Below are positions 2,179 through 34,772 of a stretch of 60,900 nucleotides of DNA, piece by piece. A program made the position numbers and the translations under genes. Numbering within the stretch: position 1 is the first letter of the stretch; every line of letters begins with the position of its first letter. The notes beneath the pieces were generated by a model, which worked only from the letters and a program-made list of their open reading frames with translations, had not been told where the DNA came from and ran no database searches. This DNA comes from an uncultured Clostridium sp. Its GTDB lineage: Bacteria > Bacillota > Clostridia > TANB77 > CAG-508. Location of the stretch: positions 1 through 60,900 of the forward strand of contig CAZPKK010000003.1 in NCBI GenBank assembly GCA_964587175.1, written 5' to 3'.

Positions 2179-4935
2179 ATGGAAAATGAAAAGAAAGATT
2201 ATAGTCAAACACTTAACTTACCAAAAACAGATTTTCCTATGAGAGGAAATCTACCTGAAAAAGAGCCAGGTATCTTAAAAGATGTTTTTGAAAATAGGCT
2301 TTATGAGAAAATTCTAAAGAAAAATGAGGGGCATACAAGTTTTGTACTTCATGATGGACCTCCATATGCAAATGGAGAGATACACGCAGGACATGCACTA
2401 AATAAAATTTTAAAAGATACAATAGTTAGATATAAGTCAATGAAAGGATTTTATTCAACATATGTGCCAGGATATGATACACATGGTATGCCAACAGAAA
2501 AAAAAGCTATTGAAAAATTAGGACTAGACAGAAGTAAAATACCCGTAACAGAATTTAGAAATACATGTCAAAGTTTCACAAAAGAATATAAAGACATACA
2601 AACAGAAGGCTTCAAACGCTTAGGAGTATTAGGTGATTGGAAAAATCCATATATTACTTATGACCCTAAAATGGAAGCTAGACAAATTGGTGTATTTGGA
2701 GATATGTATAAAAAAGGATATATATATAAAGGTCTAAAACCTGTTTATTGGTGTACTGATTGTGAGACAGCCTTAGCTGAAGCAGAAATTGAATATAAAG
2801 ATGTTGAATCTACATCTATTTATGTTAAATTTCCAGTTGTAGAAGGAAAAGGACTGTTAAATGATGAGGATACTTATATTGTAATATGGACAACAACTCC
2901 TTGGACATTACCTGGAAATATGGCAATTACTGTGGGGGCAGATTTTGAATATAACTTAATAAAGACAAATGTGGGTAATTTAGTTATAGCAAGTGATTTG
3001 GTAGAAAAAGTCATGAAAATAGCTGAGATAGAGGATTATAAAATATTAAAAACATTTAAAGGTGAAGAAATCAAAGGTGTGCAATGTAGACATCCTTTCT
3101 TAGAAAGAAACTCTGTGGTTGTATTAGGGTCAGAAGATGGGGTTAATGTTACATTAGAAGAAGGAACAGGAGCTGTTCATACTGCACCGGGTTATGGTAA
3201 AGAGGATTATGCTCAAAGCCTAAAAGATAATTTGGAAATAAAAGTTGTTGTAAATGACAAAGGCGTTCAAACAGACGAAGCAGGACCTTTTGCAGGAATG
3301 TATTATGCTAAATCTGATAAAGAAATAACAAAATGGCTTGAAGAAAATGGATATTTATTAAAGTCAGTAAAAATAACACACTCATATCCACATTGTTGGA
3401 GATGTAGAAATCCAATCATATTTAGAGCAACACCACAATGGTTTGCTTCAATAGATGGTTTTAGAGATGAAGTTTTGAAATCAATAAAAACAGTTAAATG
3501 GCATCCGGTATGGGGAGAAGAAAGAATAACTGAAATGATAAAAGGTAGAAACGATTGGTGTATATCTAGGCAACGTACTTGGGGAGTTCCACTTCCAATA
3601 TTTTATTGTGAGAATTGTGATGAAGCTTATGTAACAAAAGAATCTATTGAAAAAATTCAAGATATATTTGGAAAAGAAGGTTCAAATGCATGGTGGGCAA
3701 AAGAAGTGAAAGATTTACTACCAGAAGGTGCAAAATGTGAAAAATGTGGATGTACTCATTTCAAAAAAGAAACAGATATAATGGATGTTTGGTTTGACTC
3801 AGGATCAACACATCAAGGTGTTTTAGTAGAAAGAGGATTAAGTTATCCAGCAGACATGTACCTTGAAGGAAATGATCAGTATAGAGGATGGTTCCAATCA
3901 TCACTTCTTACGTCAGTTGCTACAAAAGGAATAGCACCATATAAAGAAGTTTTAACACATGGATTTGTTACAGATGGGCAAGGAAGAAAAATGTCAAAGA
4001 GTTTAGGAAATGGTGTATCTCCAATAGATGTGTGTAATAAATACGGAGCAGATATTCTAAGACTTTGGGTATTATCAGCTGATTATTCAATGGACGTAAA
4101 CTTATCTGATGATATATTAAAAGGGATATCAGATGTTTATAGAAAAATAAGAAATACTGCAAGATATATATTAGGAAATACAAGTGATTATAATCCAGAA
4201 AACCCAGTTGCTTATGAAGATTTAATGGAAATAGATAAATGGGCTTTAACAAGACTTAACAAATTAATTCGTGATTGCAATAAAGATTATGATGAATACA
4301 ATTTTGCAAATTGTTATCATGACATAAATCAGTTTTGTGTTGTAGATATGAGCAGTTTCTACTTAGATATAATAAAAGACAGATTATATACATCTAAAGC
4401 AGATTCAAAAGAAAGAAGAGCAGCTCAAACAGTGATGTATTATATACTTGATAGTTTAGTAAAAATGTTGACACCAATGACATCATTTACAGCAGAAGAA
4501 ATTTGGAAGGCAATGAAGCATACTGAAAAAGAAAATGTAGAAAGTCCAATGCTTACAGACTATCCAGCTCCAAATGATGAGTGGGACAATAAAAATCTTT
4601 CAGAAAAATGGAAAAAGATAATAAAATTAAAAGATATAGTTTCCAAAGAATTAGAGCTTGCAAGAACAAATAAGACAATTGGAAACTCGCTAGACGCAAA
4701 AGTTACAATATATGCAGAAAATGAAGAGTATTACTTCTTAAAAGAAAATGAAGATTTGATTAAATTAGTTTTAATAGTATCTGGATTAAAAATAGAAGAA
4801 AACAAACGTAAAGAAGAAAAAATCGGCATAAAAGTAGAACATGCAGATGGTGAAAAATGTGAAAGATGTTGGATGTATGAGGAACATACAGAAGATGGAT
4901 TATGTCAAAGATGTAGAGAAGTTTTAGAGAAATAG
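2179..4935 (+). CDS. ileS: Isoleucine--tRNA ligase
   Basis: Class I aaRS signatures are present: HAGH (HIGH-type) and KMSKS. A C-terminal Cys cluster is present. AGGAGG lies upstream of ATG 2179. Confidence 0.97.
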   Translation: MENEKKDYSQTLNLPKTDFPMRGNLPEKEPGILKDVFENRLYEKILKKNEGHTSFVLHDGPPYANGEIHAGHALNKILKDTIVRYKSMKGFYSTYVPGYDTHGMPTEKKAIEKLGLDRSKIPVTEFRNTCQSFTKEYKDIQTEGFKRLGVLGDWKNPYITYDPKMEARQIGVFGDMYKKGYIYKGLKPVYWCTDCETALAEAEIEYKDVESTSIYVKFPVVEGKGLLNDEDTYIVIWTTTPWTLPGNMAITVGADFEYNLIKTNVGNLVIASDLVEKVMKIAEIEDYKILKTFKGEEIKGVQCRHPFLERNSVVVLGSEDGVNVTLEEGTGAVHTAPGYGKEDYAQSLKDNLEIKVVVNDKGVQTDEAGPFAGMYYAKSDKEITKWLEENGYLLKSVKITHSYPHCWRCRNPIIFRATPQWFASIDGFRDEVLKSIKTVKWHPVWGEERITEMIKGRNDWCISRQRTWGVPLPIFYCENCDEAYVTKESIEKIQDIFGKEGSNAWWAKEVKDLLPEGAKCEKCGCTHFKKETDIMDVWFDSGSTHQGVLVERGLSYPADMYLEGNDQYRGWFQSSLLTSVATKGIAPYKEVLTHGFVTDGQGRKMSKSLGNGVSPIDVCNKYGADILRLWVLSADYSMDVNLSDDILKGISDVYRKIRNTARYILGNTSDYNPENPVAYEDLMEIDKWALTRLNKLIRDCNKDYDEYNFANCYHDINQFCVVDMSSFYLDIIKDRLYTSKADSKERRAAQTVMYYILDSLVKMLTPMTSFTAEEIWKAMKHTEKENVESPMLTDYPAPNDEWDNKNLSEKWKKIIKLKDIVSKELELARTNKTIGNSLDAKVTIYAENEEYYFLKENEDLIKLVLIVSGLKIEENKRKEEKIGIKVEHADGEKCERCWMYEEHTEDGLCQRCREVLEK

Positions 4936-30988: not shown

Positions 30989-32378
30989 TTAAGTACATAG
31001 TTTTATTTTCTTTGAGTAAATACGACAGTCCTTAAGTTGTTTATTTATATATCTTGTAAGAATATGTCCATATGTTTCTTTTATTTGTCTATCATCAGCA
31101 TGACCAAGTATAGTTGCAATAACAAGAAGGTCCATTCCGGCTTCAATCATTCTAGTAACAGCAGTATGTCTACACATATGAGTGTGACAACCTTTTGTAA
31201 GTTCTAGTTTTATTTCCGCTTCTCTACAAATTCTTTTAAAAATATTATTTATAGAACGATGATCTATATATTTACCATCTCGCTGACAAAACAAAAGATT
31301 TTCTTTATTATTTTGATTACTTTTTGCATTTTCTATTTGTTTTCTGATGATATCTAGCATAAGATTTTCATCAAAAATATTAAAAGGAACGAATCTTTCA
31401 TCTGGTAAACCTTGTTCAATTTTTTTACGACCAGTTTTAGTGGTCTTACCCATAATAATTTTCCCATTATCGTTAGATAAAGTTCGATTTATTATAAAAC
31501 CATTATTTTTTAAATCTATATTTTTATCAATATCAACAGCACCTAACTCTCCAATTCTTGTAGCAGATAATAATGCACATACAAATAAATTTTTTAAAGT
31601 TTCTTCATCATAATTACACTTAAAACTTTTAACTAAAGGTTTAGTTAACAAATATTTTATTAACTTTCTTTGTTCTTCTATTTCAAAAGGTTGTACAAGT
31701 TGCTTTTTCTGTAAAGAAACAGGAGTATATACTCTTAACATGGGATTATCTGAATAATATATTATTTTATCTAAAACACATTGCATAAAACCTGCTTTTA
31801 ATTTAGCTACTATTTTATCTATTTCTCCGTTGAGATAAATATCTGATAGAATTAAGGAAATCTTGAATTTCATTATAACTTACTTTTTGAACTGGTTTTT
31901 GGAAATCTGACCAATTTTCAATATGTCTATAATGATAATTGTCTTTATCTACTGTATTTTTTATGATTTTCCCTGCTTTAAACTTTGTAGATCCTATTTT
32001 TTTACATACTTCTATAATAGTAATACTATGTTTTTTTACGTAGCTTTTTGTATGAATTTTTGCTTCTACATCTAATTTTTTATCAACTGCAGCTTTTTTC
32101 TTTTCTTCATTAGCAACAGTGGTTTGTTTTTTATTTATAGAGATTTGAGCTTGATATCTGAAATAACAATAGAAGCGGTCACAATATTTTAAACAGTCAG
32201 TACATTCAACACATTTATGACATTTTGCTGATCCAGTACGATTATTACATTTACTTCTATCAATACAATTTTTACAAATATCACATTCATAATCTAATTT
32301 TTTTCGTCTAGGTATCTTTTGTATAGTATCATAGATAGAGCCTTCGCCATTAGCTCTACGTGTACCTGTATTGTTCAT
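30989..32378 (-). pseudogene. int: Tyrosine integrase with a Cys-rich N-terminal insertion, frameshifted
   Basis: The N-terminal ORF (32378-31815) starts RRANGEGSIY. The C-terminal ORF (31873-30989) carries the R...HxxR...Y catalytic region (HMCRHTAVT, LGHADDRQIKETYGHI). The frames overlap at 31815-31873. Confidence 0.85.
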
Positions 32379-32421
32379 AAAAAAACCTCCAATTTTTCTT
32401 TATTTTATTTATCATAAACAC

Positions 32422-32450
32422 TTGAAAAATTGCAGGTATTTGTATATAAT
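32422..32450 (+). promoter_or_regulatory. Sigma-A-type promoter of small unit 1
   Basis: TTGAAA, a 17-nt spacer, then TATAAT. Confidence 0.55.
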
Positions 32451-32456
32451 ACAAAC

Positions 32457-32531
32457 TGTAATCACTCAAGTGATTATGCTTTCGAGAAATGTGTCGTGTC
32501 GCCAAACAAGATTACATTTCTCGGCTTTTTT
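32457..32531 (+). ncRNA. Candidate small RNA 1 (about 75 nt)
   Basis: A promoter is followed by the small hairpin atcac/gtgat. The terminator stem cgagaaatgt/acatttctcg (32483-32523) is followed by a U-tract. No SD-led ORF is present. Confidence 0.45.
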
Positions 32532-32568
32532 AGTAATATTTTTTTGTTTTTTGAATATAATAAAACTA

Positions 32569-32606
32569 GTCAAACGTTTGACAAGTTAAATATTATTTGC
32601 TATAAT
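32569..32606 (+). promoter_or_regulatory. Consensus promoter of small unit 2 with an overlapping 14-bp palindrome
   Basis: TTGACA (32578) is followed by a 17-nt spacer and TATAAT (32601). The perfect palindrome GTCAAACGTTTGAC at 32569-32582 covers the -35. Confidence 0.6.
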
Positions 32607-32612
32607 ATATTT

Positions 32613-32683
32613 AACTTTCCCACTACTTATAGTAGTCGGGCGTCAGAAGACTTTGGAGAACTCTAGCAGTTCTCCTTTATTTT
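32613..32683 (+). ncRNA. Candidate small RNA 2 (about 70 nt), convergent with the MazF-fold gene
   Basis: It has the hairpin cccactact/agtagtcggg. The terminator ggagaact-ctagc-agttctcc is followed by a U-tract that overlaps the stop codon of ORF 32677-33360(-). Confidence 0.45.
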
Positions 32684-33360
32684 GTGAAAAATTTTATTAT
32701 TCCGTCATCTAATAAATCTAAACTATTTCTTGATAAACGAACTTTTCTTAATATTTCATCGTCAAATATACGTTGTTTACTTATTGTTGTTATCTGATTT
32801 ATTAAAGCAATACTGCCTATTTTCATTTTTGATATTTCATCTTTTATTTTTTTTACATATTCAAAATCAGTTGTAAATTGCTTAACTTGTTCTGTAGGTA
32901 AACTCCAAATATCAGTATATTTATTTGAAAGTTTTTCAATTTCATTTGAATATAATGTATTTAAAGTATCATATATTTCATTACCTAAATCTATTGAAGA
33001 TTTAGGATATTTCTTATTCTTCTTTGAGGTTAGAGGAATTATATTTAATGTTCCATTCTTAGGATTATCATATTTGTCTAAAACGACACAATAATGTAAA
33101 CCTCCAAGCTCATGTCCTATATTAAAACCTAAATTAGCTTTTATTATACTTCCTCGTTTAAAAACGATAAGTTTTTTAGTATCAAATGTCTTTTCCTCAT
33201 CATGATAATTAGCATAGTCATTAATCCAATAAGCTAATAAATGACTAGTCTTATATTCTTTCATATCTATGTGTTTTAGAAAAGATACATCAAGTCTATT
33301 TAAAGAATTATCTTTATGTATTATTGCTTTATCTTTTAATATATCATCATCATTTTTCAA
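32677..33360 (-). CDS. Oversized MazF/PemK-fold protein (227 aa)
   Basis: The blocks FKRGSIIKANLGFNIGHELGGLHYCVVL..NIIPLTS and SIALINQITTISKQRI parallel B. subtilis NdoA ([43 protein letters not shown]). Confidence 0.6.
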   Translation of the reverse strand: MKNDDDILKDKAIIHKDNSLNRLDVSFLKHIDMKEYKTSHLLAYWINDYANYHDEEKTFDTKKLIVFKRGSIIKANLGFNIGHELGGLHYCVVLDKYDNPKNGTLNIIPLTSKKNKKYPKSSIDLGNEIYDTLNTLYSNEIEKLSNKYTDIWSLPTEQVKQFTTDFEYVKKIKDEISKMKIGSIALINQITTISKQRIFDDEILRKVRLSRNSLDLLDDGIIKFFTK

Positions 33361-34372: not shown

Positions 34373-34432
34373 AAAAAAAACAATAATTTTTTTAAAAAAA
34401 GTGTTGACAAAAAACAATAATTGATATATATT
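34373..34432. promoter_or_regulatory. Divergent cI/cro control region with repeated operators
   Basis: AAAAAACAATAAT occurs at 34375 and 34409. The rightward promoter is TTGACA (34404), a 17-nt spacer, then TATATT (34427). A third near-copy, TTGTCAAAAAACAAT, is at 34687. Confidence 0.6.
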
Positions 34433-34465: not shown

Positions 34466-34678
34466 ATGAAGATAAATATTAAAGAAGTAAGAAAGTTAAT
34501 TCAGGAAAGATTTGATAATAAATTAACTAATTTTGTTACAGAACTAGGGATTGATTATTCTTATATGAATTTAATAATGAATGGGCACAGAGCTCCAGAT
34601 AGTAAAAAAGTTTGTGATCGTATAGTTGAATATTGCAAAAAAAATAATTTAGATTATTCAAAATATGTTTTTTTTTAG
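34466..34678 (+). CDS. Cro/XRE-like small DNA-binding protein
   Basis: The protein is 70 aa. It is the first gene of the rightward operon, divergent from the repressor, with an AAAGGAG SD. Confidence 0.6.
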   Translation: MKINIKEVRKLIQERFDNKLTNFVTELGIDYSYMNLIMNGHRAPDSKKVCDRIVEYCKKNNLDYSKYVFF

Positions 34679-34772
34679 AAAAACTGTTGTCAAAAAACAA
34701 TGAAAGTAAGGAGAAATTATAATGAAAAAAATAAAATAGGCGACACGACACAAAAAAGAAAGGAGAAAGAAT

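Follow-up and report, generated by a model that had tools for sequence, protein, structure and literature searches.

An uncultured Clostridium sp. of the Clostridia (GTDB lineage TANB77; CAG-508) carries, on contig CAZPKK010000003.1 of assembly GCA_964587175.1, a prophage in which a small promoter-terminator unit adjoins the gene of a tyrosine integrase (int); the whole stretch analysed, positions 1 to 60,900 of that contig (60,900 nt), is referred to below as the window. The unit is predicted to produce a small RNA (sRNA) with a short segment, the seed, that is complementary to a target site in the leader of the early transcript, ahead of a gene termed here xis-like for its resemblance to excisionase genes. 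The match between seed and target is kept in 21 prophages while its letters change 14 times, and therefore both RNAs very probably pair. Judged from these sequence comparisons, it is very likely that RNA-RNA pairing in trans is the selected function, and the unit (32422-32531) is probably the gene of a trans-acting phage sRNA that represses the first gene after cro. The features of the unit and of the leader are the following (SD, Shine-Dalgarno sequence; ORF, open reading frame):

32422-32450, + strand: sRNA promoter TTGAAA-17-TATAAT, 11/12 positions in a consensus scan
32457-32531, + strand: predicted sRNA of ~75 nt, start placed ~7 nt past the -10 element, end at the U-tract
32458-32477, + strand: 5' hairpin of the sRNA, 8 bp with loop UCAA, from the fold; kept in relatives
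32479-32483, + strand: linker CUUUC, anti-SD-like, pairing with GAAAG of the xis-like SD in the predicted duplex
32483-32523, + strand: terminator hairpin, 10-bp stem (32483-32492 / 32514-32523) and 21-nt loop, followed by the U-tract at 32526-32531
32490-32503, + strand: seed (anti-target) UGUGUCGUGUCGCC, exact reverse complement of 34739-34752
34404-34432, + strand: rightward early promoter TTGACA-17-TATATT, 11/12 in the promoter scan, between the divergent cI-like and cro-like genes; it would produce the target transcript
34708-34739, + strand: SD AAGGAG (34708-34713) of the mini-ORF MKKIK (34722-34739), which ends in a stop codon adjoining the target
34739-34752, + strand: target site GGCGACACGACACA in the early-transcript leader, exact complement of the seed, on the same strand
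34758-34765, + strand: SD region of the xis-like gene, GAAAGGAG, beginning 5 nt past the end of the target and partly under the auxiliary helix
34773-35081, + strand: xis-like gene, 102 aa, modelled as a MerR/Xis-type winged helix with a long C-terminal helix (AF2 model, Foldseek)

An earlier note, made from the letters of the window, had described the promoter-terminator unit and the exact 14-nt reverse complement upstream of the xis-like SD on the same strand. Re-examination confirmed both, down to the coordinates of the unit and its stem; the T-run occupies 32526-32531.

Covariation of seed and target in related prophages

Related loci were gathered by three routes. Loci L003-L006, from uncultured gut Clostridium/Clostridia, came from an alignment of the integrase against one genome per species; L083-L100 were obtained by aligning the xis-like protein with metagenomes and viral contigs, and L101-L119 by exact look-ups of homologues of the xis-like protein. 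A locus was considered evaluable if both regions were present on the contig, which was the case for 21 distinct loci; loci without one of the sides are contigs that end early. Within the 21 loci, 14 different seed/target sequences are found, and the two sides are complementary in every one, over 12-20 nt. Thirteen of the 14 pairs are perfect Watson-Crick matches, the remaining one containing a single G·U. An intact unit without its target, or the reverse, was encountered in none of the evaluable loci. The target sequences, with the length of each match, are listed below:

Window: GGCGACACGACACA, 14 nt
L002: TGCGGCACAACAC, 13 nt
L003: TGCGGCAGAACACT, 14 nt
L090: TCGCGGCAGAACAC, 14 nt
L105: TCGCGTCAGAACACT, 15 nt
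L005 and others: (T)TGCGGAACGACACACA (L005: TTGCGGAACGACACACA), 15-17 nt
L006: TGCCGTACACTACACAA, 17 nt
L102, L104: TGCCGAACTACACACA, 16 nt
L110, L118: (TT)GCGGACACCACACA, 14-16 nt
L112: GCGGAACACTACACATTAT, 19 nt
L114: GCGGTCTAACAC, 12 nt
L099, L100: ACCACGAACCGATAC, 15 nt
L119: AAGTTTGCGACCGATACACA, 20 nt
L116: TCGCGGCTCAACACAA, 16 nt

The series that leads from L002 through L003 and L090 to L105 is made of single-step changes, each of which is compensated on the partner side. At the other end of the range, the L099 type, which belongs to a branch whose xis-like protein is only 45% identical, has a seed that is nearly unlike all others and that still matches its own target. When all seeds were tabulated against all targets, cognate complements reached 12-19 nt, as compared with 5-11 nt for non-cognate combinations, and none of 20000 permutations attained the observed total. 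The earlier note had proposed pairing between the sRNA and the xis-like leader and had suggested that covariation of the two 14-mers be checked in related prophages; the comparison bears the proposal out.

The unit is also tightly linked to its surroundings. The promoter, two hairpins and the U-tract are kept in 32 loci, and an nhmmer profile of the unit identifies exactly one copy per locus in these 32 loci, always adjoining this type of integrase; it gave no match in loci that have only a ~45%-identical integrase. The overall sRNA architecture, with lengths of 73-87 nt, was recognized in 10 sequence-distinct relatives. Among the loci of the integrase scan (L002-L013), homologues of the xis-like protein are confined to those that have both this type of integrase and the sRNA unit, and none is present where the integrase is of the 45%-identical kind. 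The cI and cro genes, which separate the unit from the xis-like gene, differ from locus to locus, being either divergent or not homologous; since they are exchanged and their flanks kept, the int-sRNA pair and the xis-like gene constitute a conserved frame around an exchangeable immunity cassette. The distance that separates the unit from its target is 2.2 kb in the window and 0.9-2.3 kb across loci. Gut assemblies from human, mouse and rabbit contain the sRNA family in abundance, and no Rfam model represents it; a blastn search of the intergenic region against deposited phage genomes and an exact 24-mer scan of viral contigs both yielded no match.

The predicted RNA, the early leader and their pairing

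The sRNA promoter is retained in all related units in the form TTGAAAA-N16-TATAAT. Folding of an 80-nt transcript predicts the 5' hairpin and the terminator hairpin, with -24.4 kcal/mol and z = -4.4 relative to shuffled sequences, and the ORFs that overlap the unit lack an SD and are not conserved, in agreement with the ~75-nt RNA without SD-led ORF that had been expected. The statement that the seed is mostly exposed in the loop can be kept in part: of TGTGTCGTGTCGCC (32490-32503), 11 of the 14 nt are located in the loop, but 3 nt form the top of the stem in the 5' arm, and the minimum-free-energy fold adds a few weak pairs within the 21-nt loop, leaving the GC-rich end of the seed, at the apex, as its truly open part. 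As to further copies of the 14-mer, the impression that there is no third one holds for the prophage, where only the two known sites are found at up to 3 mismatches; a single site with 3 mismatches is present elsewhere in the window (chance expectation, 0.43). An Rfam scan of the window returned nothing at the gathering threshold, and in the region 32380-32700 nothing relevant was detected at E values of up to 10, where only chance matches to miRNA models appeared on the opposite strand.

An inverted repeat that spans the -10 element of the sRNA promoter (32436-32456 in the window) is found at the same position in L003, L005 and L090. It differs on both arms among relatives (TTTGTAT/ATACAAA, ACATTT/AAATGT, GCTAT/ATAGC, ATGTTAT/ATAACAT), and from its sequence may be a candidate operator that makes the sRNA promoter repressible.

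Several observations point to a feature of RNA and not of DNA. The pairs of the 5' hairpin are kept through GC/GU/AU and CG/AU/UA changes (13 sequences), and G·U pairs occur in the hairpins of the window, L084 and L086. The terminator stems differ in sequence and yet always form (CGAGAAAUGU, GGAUAAGUG, GGAUAAUGUGU, GGGUAAUGUGU, GGAAAAGUG), with a U-tract in every relative; they were documented through individual folds, and only the 5' hairpin counts were taken from the MAFFT/RNAalifold alignment, which is out of register at the terminator owing to differing loop lengths. Comparison of the + strand RNA with its reverse complement favours the former in 13 of 14 sequences, the mean difference in stability being 3.6 kcal/mol. 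The pair of L116, in which the loop TTGTGTTGGGCCGCGA faces the target TCGCGGCTCAACACAA, contains what would be a mismatch in DNA and is a G·U wobble in RNA, a single case that is weakly diagnostic by itself. Finally, one seed (GCGGAACGACACACA) occurs together with four operator-like palindromes ahead of the upstream ORF (uORF) and with unrelated immunity genes, and therefore the target is not the operator of the repressor.

On the target side, the early leader is A-rich and nearly free of structure; opening it costs 1.2 kcal/mol. In every locus the target follows closely on the cro-like gene, 4-8 nt ahead of the SD of the next cistron, which is usually the xis-like gene. In most loci an SD-led uORF starts 17-20 nt ahead of the first paired base (MKKIK, MKKLK, MKELK, MLKIK, MIKNK and similar), and in L003, L090, L102 and L110 a uORF TGA overlaps the xis-like ATG as ATGA. 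Such a stop/start overlap is a classic layout for translational coupling.

Other traits of the leader were recorded alongside these. The uORF is conserved, begins with M-K-K-(I/L)-K, extends over 5 to more than 20 codons, and its frame crosses the sRNA target (window, L005, L084, L086, L090, L102, L105, L006, L110, L112); in L114 its frame is that of the xis-like gene. In the leaders of L002, L085, L086, L087 and L084, an operator-like palindrome between the cro-like stop and the uORF repeats the palindrome of the rightward promoter; in L002 it reads CTTGAATTAAATTCAAG and is present twice, at 3318-3345 and 3567-3590, and the palindrome differs between immunity types. In L104, the sRNA target is separated from the xis-like gene by an inserted open frame of ~60 codons that has no canonical start codon (4293-4500; …DKTDEELDEIIKILKIAECKLQNIIKEQ…).

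Pairing was scored through exact complements and restricted segments, given that duplexes computed between the full-length sRNA and 100-nt leaders are unrealistically long and AU-rich. When the segment 32479-32513 was scanned for trans partners against all 6084 60-nt intervals of the whole window, on both strands, the xis leader was the best, at -33.5 kcal/mol, the next best being -22.5 kcal/mol; relative to the background (mean -10.2, standard deviation 3.3) it lies ~7 standard deviations from the mean. The duplex predicted for the window consists of a 5-bp anti-SD helix, an internal loop and a 14-bp core. Comparable auxiliary helices between the linker and the SD region are predicted in other loci:

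Window: linker CUUUC, SD region GAAAG
L002: linker ACCUUU, SD region AAAGGU
L005: linker CCUUG, SD region CAAGG
L006: linker ACCUC, SD region GAGGU
L102: linker CCUUUGGAU, SD region AUCCAAAGG

In most loci the auxiliary helix surpasses ~95% of shuffled linkers, and that of L102 (9 bp) surpasses 500 of 500.

The xis-like gene and the prophage neighbourhood

The earlier description of the xis-like ORF as a helix-turn-helix (HTH) protein of the excisionase family is weakly supported, through the modelled winged-helix fold, Pfam similarity and strict linkage to this integrase type. The protein matches the PHROG family 'HTH DNA binding protein' with E = 0.005, and Pfam HTH_17 is recorded below threshold in 16 of 67 xis-like homologues; no meaningful match was found when PDB sequences were searched with a profile of the xis-like alignment. 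An AF2 model built from 67 sequences reached a pLDDT of 84.7 (that built from 5 sequences, with a pLDDT of 54, was too poor and was not used). For its N-terminal ~55 residues, Foldseek identified TerS DNA-binding domains, BldC, the RdfS excisionase, Pukovnik Xis, a DNA-binding protein of phage P2 and gpNu1, with TM scores of 0.54-0.68 (target side) and probabilities of 0.6-0.97, at E-values of only 0.1-1.2. On the basis of this weak similarity in fold and in Pfam, together with the linkage to the integrase, an excisionase or directionality factor is our best guess for the function of the protein.

The possibility that the sRNA is the antitoxin RNA of a type I toxin-antitoxin pair was considered and rejected, the cistron in the window coding for a 102-aa winged-helix protein and not for a small hydrophobic toxin. 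A 55-aa hydrophobic ORF follows the target in L099 only.

The gene order in the window is two tRNA-Gly genes, int (-), the sRNA unit (+), a second unit (+), a MazF-domain gene (-), a Zn-ribbon gene (-), the cI-like gene (-), the rightward promoter, the cro-like gene, the mini-ORF, the target and the xis-like gene. The neighbouring genes are:

30989-32378, - strand: tyrosine integrase (Pfam Phage_integrase), divergent from the sRNA gene, with a +1 frame break at CAA-CGG-A
32677-33360, - strand: MazF-domain gene, 227 aa
between the MazF-domain gene and the cI-like gene, - strand: Zn-ribbon gene, 83 aa
33657-34325, - strand: cI-like HTH/S24 repressor
34466-34678, + strand: cro-like gene

The window integrase is 66-74% identical to the intact, 462-aa integrase of L002. 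At its frame break (31815-31873, - strand; near 31826-31830) there is one extra base relative to L002, in the context ...TCn CAA CGG A GAA ATA GA..., and seven other loci (L086, L087, L088, L096, L097, L104, L110) have the extra base at the same site. The zero frame meets the rare Arg codons CGG AGA and then a stop, and reading of CGGA as one step restores the full 462-aa integrase; the CGG at this point is the only one in the gene. Its sequence suggests that the break is a rare-codon site of programmed +1 frameshifting or of quadruplet reading, and not the mark of a pseudogene.

The second promoter-terminator unit (32578-32684, +) consists of TTGACA-17-TATAAT, a hairpin and a terminator, and converges on the 3' end of the MazF-domain gene. 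Compensatory changes are seen in its first hairpin. It is kept together with the MazF-domain gene in L001 (6640-6800), a locus that has a different integrase and no copy of the first unit.

Proposed mechanism, alternatives and relation to known phage RNAs

The repression that we consider probable could proceed as follows. The sRNA would be made from its strong, conserved promoter, and its GC-rich apical loop would nucleate on the open, CA-rich target, after which the helix would grow into the upper stem and the linker would close on the SD of the next cistron. The resulting bipartite duplex would clamp the ~35-nt interval that extends from the start of the uORF to the SD, blocking initiation at the xis-like SD and perhaps also at the uORF, whose initiation footprint ends where the duplex starts; the stability of the operon, or read-through behind the first gene after cro, would probably be lowered as well. 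In this manner the sRNA would set a threshold below which leaky or short-lived transcription of the early genes, be it in a lysogen or soon after infection, yields no directionality factor while Int is available. Since each seed/target pair is phage-specific, the sRNA could also act on a superinfecting relative that bears the same address, in the way of the c4 RNA of P1/P7.

A number of observations weigh against repression of this gene by this route. The loci share a common ancestor, and therefore the 14 types are not 14 independent inventions. The assignment of the target gene as an excisionase is weak (Foldseek E 0.1-1.2; HTH_17 sub-threshold), and L099, L104 and L116 carry another small gene between the target and the xis-like gene, so that the regulated entity may be the operon after cro and not xis as such. 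As regards geometry, the xis-like ATG lies 21 nt downstream from the end of the core duplex, which leaves the SD uncovered. The auxiliary helix that would cover it is weak (5-6 bp) and surpasses shuffled linkers only modestly in the majority of loci; 3 of 16 loci (L104, L110, L114) lack it, and its contribution to the pairing is therefore treated as suggestive. A part of the seed, moreover, is predicted to be weakly paired in the hairpin, and a crude full-length estimate puts the cost of opening the whole interaction at ~22-30 kcal/mol. Lastly, the sole sequencing run in which related sequence was found (X1) consists of low-depth, 151-nt fragments of a relative.

Other explanations have to be set beside repression. 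The same pairing could have another outcome, with the sRNA activating or stabilizing the early transcript, or with the early transcript acting as a sponge for the sRNA at induction; in that case the sRNA would mainly serve another task, such as that of a cis-antisense RNA to the 5' leader of int. Covariation proves pairing alone and not its direction, and the SD does not lie under the core helix. The sRNA gene is, furthermore, antisense to any - strand transcript that enters int, with full overlap if int is transcribed from upstream, where a - strand promoter-like site is located (32584-32557); in loci of the L002 type, no - strand U-tract marks the end of the upstream - strand gene, which falls right at the sRNA terminator, and transcription is thus likely to continue through the sRNA gene into int. 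We nevertheless regard such an outcome as rather unlikely: the leader is already open and offers no evident inhibitory structure for pairing to relieve, the auxiliary helix, where present, covers the SD in a manner that fits repression, and the phage analogues c4 and sar are repressors (PMC12197685).

The sites might also act as DNA, either as inverted binding sites of a phage-specific protein, a version of the shared protein-binding site that the earlier note had offered as its alternative, or as crossover sites for inversion of the immunity segment. They are indeed exact inverted repeats that flank cI/cro with a tyrosine recombinase adjoining, inverted copies of one site would covary too, and 13 of the 14 pairs are perfect as DNA. 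A binding site is nonetheless disfavoured by the varied operator palindromes, by the location of the sites outside the cI/cro operator region, by the occurrence of one site sequence with different operators and non-homologous cI/cro genes, and by the + strand bias. Inversion, for its part, finds no sign in the data, because a single orientation of the segment is seen in all 21 loci, which stem from many separate assemblies; no joints were detected in the reads of one related run, which is of low depth. The placement of the sites is likewise that expected of RNA: in every locus site 1 occupies the hairpin loop of a promoter-terminator unit, and site 2 belongs to a transcribed leader, where its spacing to the uORF start and the SD is fixed. 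The match varies in length between 12 and 20 nt and has ragged edges, its lone mismatch is a G·U, and a discontinuous second helix is sensible only for RNA; a DNA-level feature thus appears improbable. A guide for the recombinase akin to a bridge RNA was examined separately and rejected, the sRNA and the att-side region sharing at most 8 identical or 6 complementary nt.

The pairing could, in principle, work in the opposite sense, with the early lytic transcript binding the nascent sRNA and stopping its terminator from forming, so that an antisense RNA runs across the repressor operon and reinforces the lytic decision. The seed does extend into the terminator stem, taking up 3-9 nt of its 5' arm, and the unit converges on the - strand lysogeny genes. 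Only 3 of the 10 stem nucleotides are covered in the window, however; an RNA acting in trans would have to bind after one arm has been synthesized and before the other is, within a fraction of a second, and a second promoter-terminator unit and a further terminator are found directly downstream. Antitermination of this kind thus seems the most improbable of the explanations considered. Repression of the first gene after cro, which we retain as the probable function, can be placed among several known phage and clostridial RNAs.

The c4 RNA is cut out of a transcript that also carries its target, in which a small upstream ORF, icd, is coupled to ant. The icd-ant layout resembles the uORF of the present leaders. 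The c4 RNA of P1/P7 represses ant through sequence-specific pairing around the ribosome-binding site, by which translation is blocked, and underlies heteroimmunity (PMC12197685). Both this 77-nt RNA and the window sRNA are small phage RNAs with short complementary segments that act, or would act, in trans on an mRNA of the lysis-lysogeny decision, and the complementary segments of c4 differ between related phages, thus giving specificity (PMC12197685), as the seeds do here. Unlike c4, the window sRNA has its own promoter and terminator and is located on the far side of the immunity genes, divergent from int; its target is an Xis-type winged-helix gene or the first cistron after cro instead of an antirepressor; the host belongs to the Gram-positive Clostridia; and there is no similarity to the C4 model in sequence or in Rfam. 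By analogy, c4 would be the closest relative in function of the window sRNA, from which it differs in architecture, sequence and structure.

The CI RNA of the satellite phage P4, a small and stable RNA, is an immunity factor that pairs with short complements in the early transcript while this is being made, and the matching sequences differ from one related element to another. Short complementary pairing with an early transcript, with sequences that vary among relatives, is common to P4 CI and to the present system. P4 CI arises by processing of the leader of the very operon under its control, acts through premature termination of transcription and replaces a protein repressor; in the window, by contrast, a cI-like protein repressor is present. 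OOP of lambda and sar of P22 are, like the window sRNA, short, terminator-ended phage RNAs with constitutive-looking promoters, and they repress a lysis-lysogeny gene by pairing (PMC12197685). They are encoded on the opposite strand and are fully complementary to their targets, unlike the window sRNA, which addresses a separate locus on the same strand through a seed of 12-20 nt.

Control of excision by an sRNA has been described in C. difficile, where RCd1 lowers the recombination directionality factor (RDF) CD1234 and skin excision (PMC8583004). That RCd1 lowers an RDF renders sRNA control of excision biologically plausible, and the likeness extends to the action of an sRNA, in a Clostridium-like host, on an RDF and hence on the excision of a prophage-like element (PMC8583004). 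RCd1 is chromosomal and highly conserved, has several proposed targets and binds with low affinity in vitro, and its presence is uncorrelated with that of the element (PMC8583004), unlike the window sRNA, which is phage-encoded, strictly linked to int and to its target, and co-evolving with the latter. A 2025 review of phage sRNAs lists none that touches integration or excision (PMC12197685), and our literature search found no phage sRNA tied to int or xis, nor a description of this sRNA-target pair. The pair belongs to the theme of phage antisense and immunity RNAs, and what is new in it is the target and the layout.

The 14 mutually non-matching pairs, set on a constant scaffold, amount to a natural compensatory-mutation experiment, and could also serve as a set of orthogonal RNA regulators for Firmicutes. 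More tentatively, prophages of gut Clostridia might possess an RNA 'address code' in which an int-linked sRNA reads a phage-specific address of 12-20 nt at the front of the early operon after cro and thereby decides both on synthesis of the directionality factor, with Int integrating and not excising, and on superinfection immunity, a role that would drive the emergence of at least 14 orthogonal addresses; as an antisense to the int leader, the same RNA could set the Int:Xis ratio. Temperate phages require Int without Xis for integration, and both for excision, and the known solutions are transcriptional or involve RNA or protein decay (lambda PI/cII, sib retroregulation). If the proposed function is correct, an int-linked trans RNA addressed to the xis leader would be a new solution to the problem of providing Int without Xis, and the first such case found for Gram-positive phages in our literature search.

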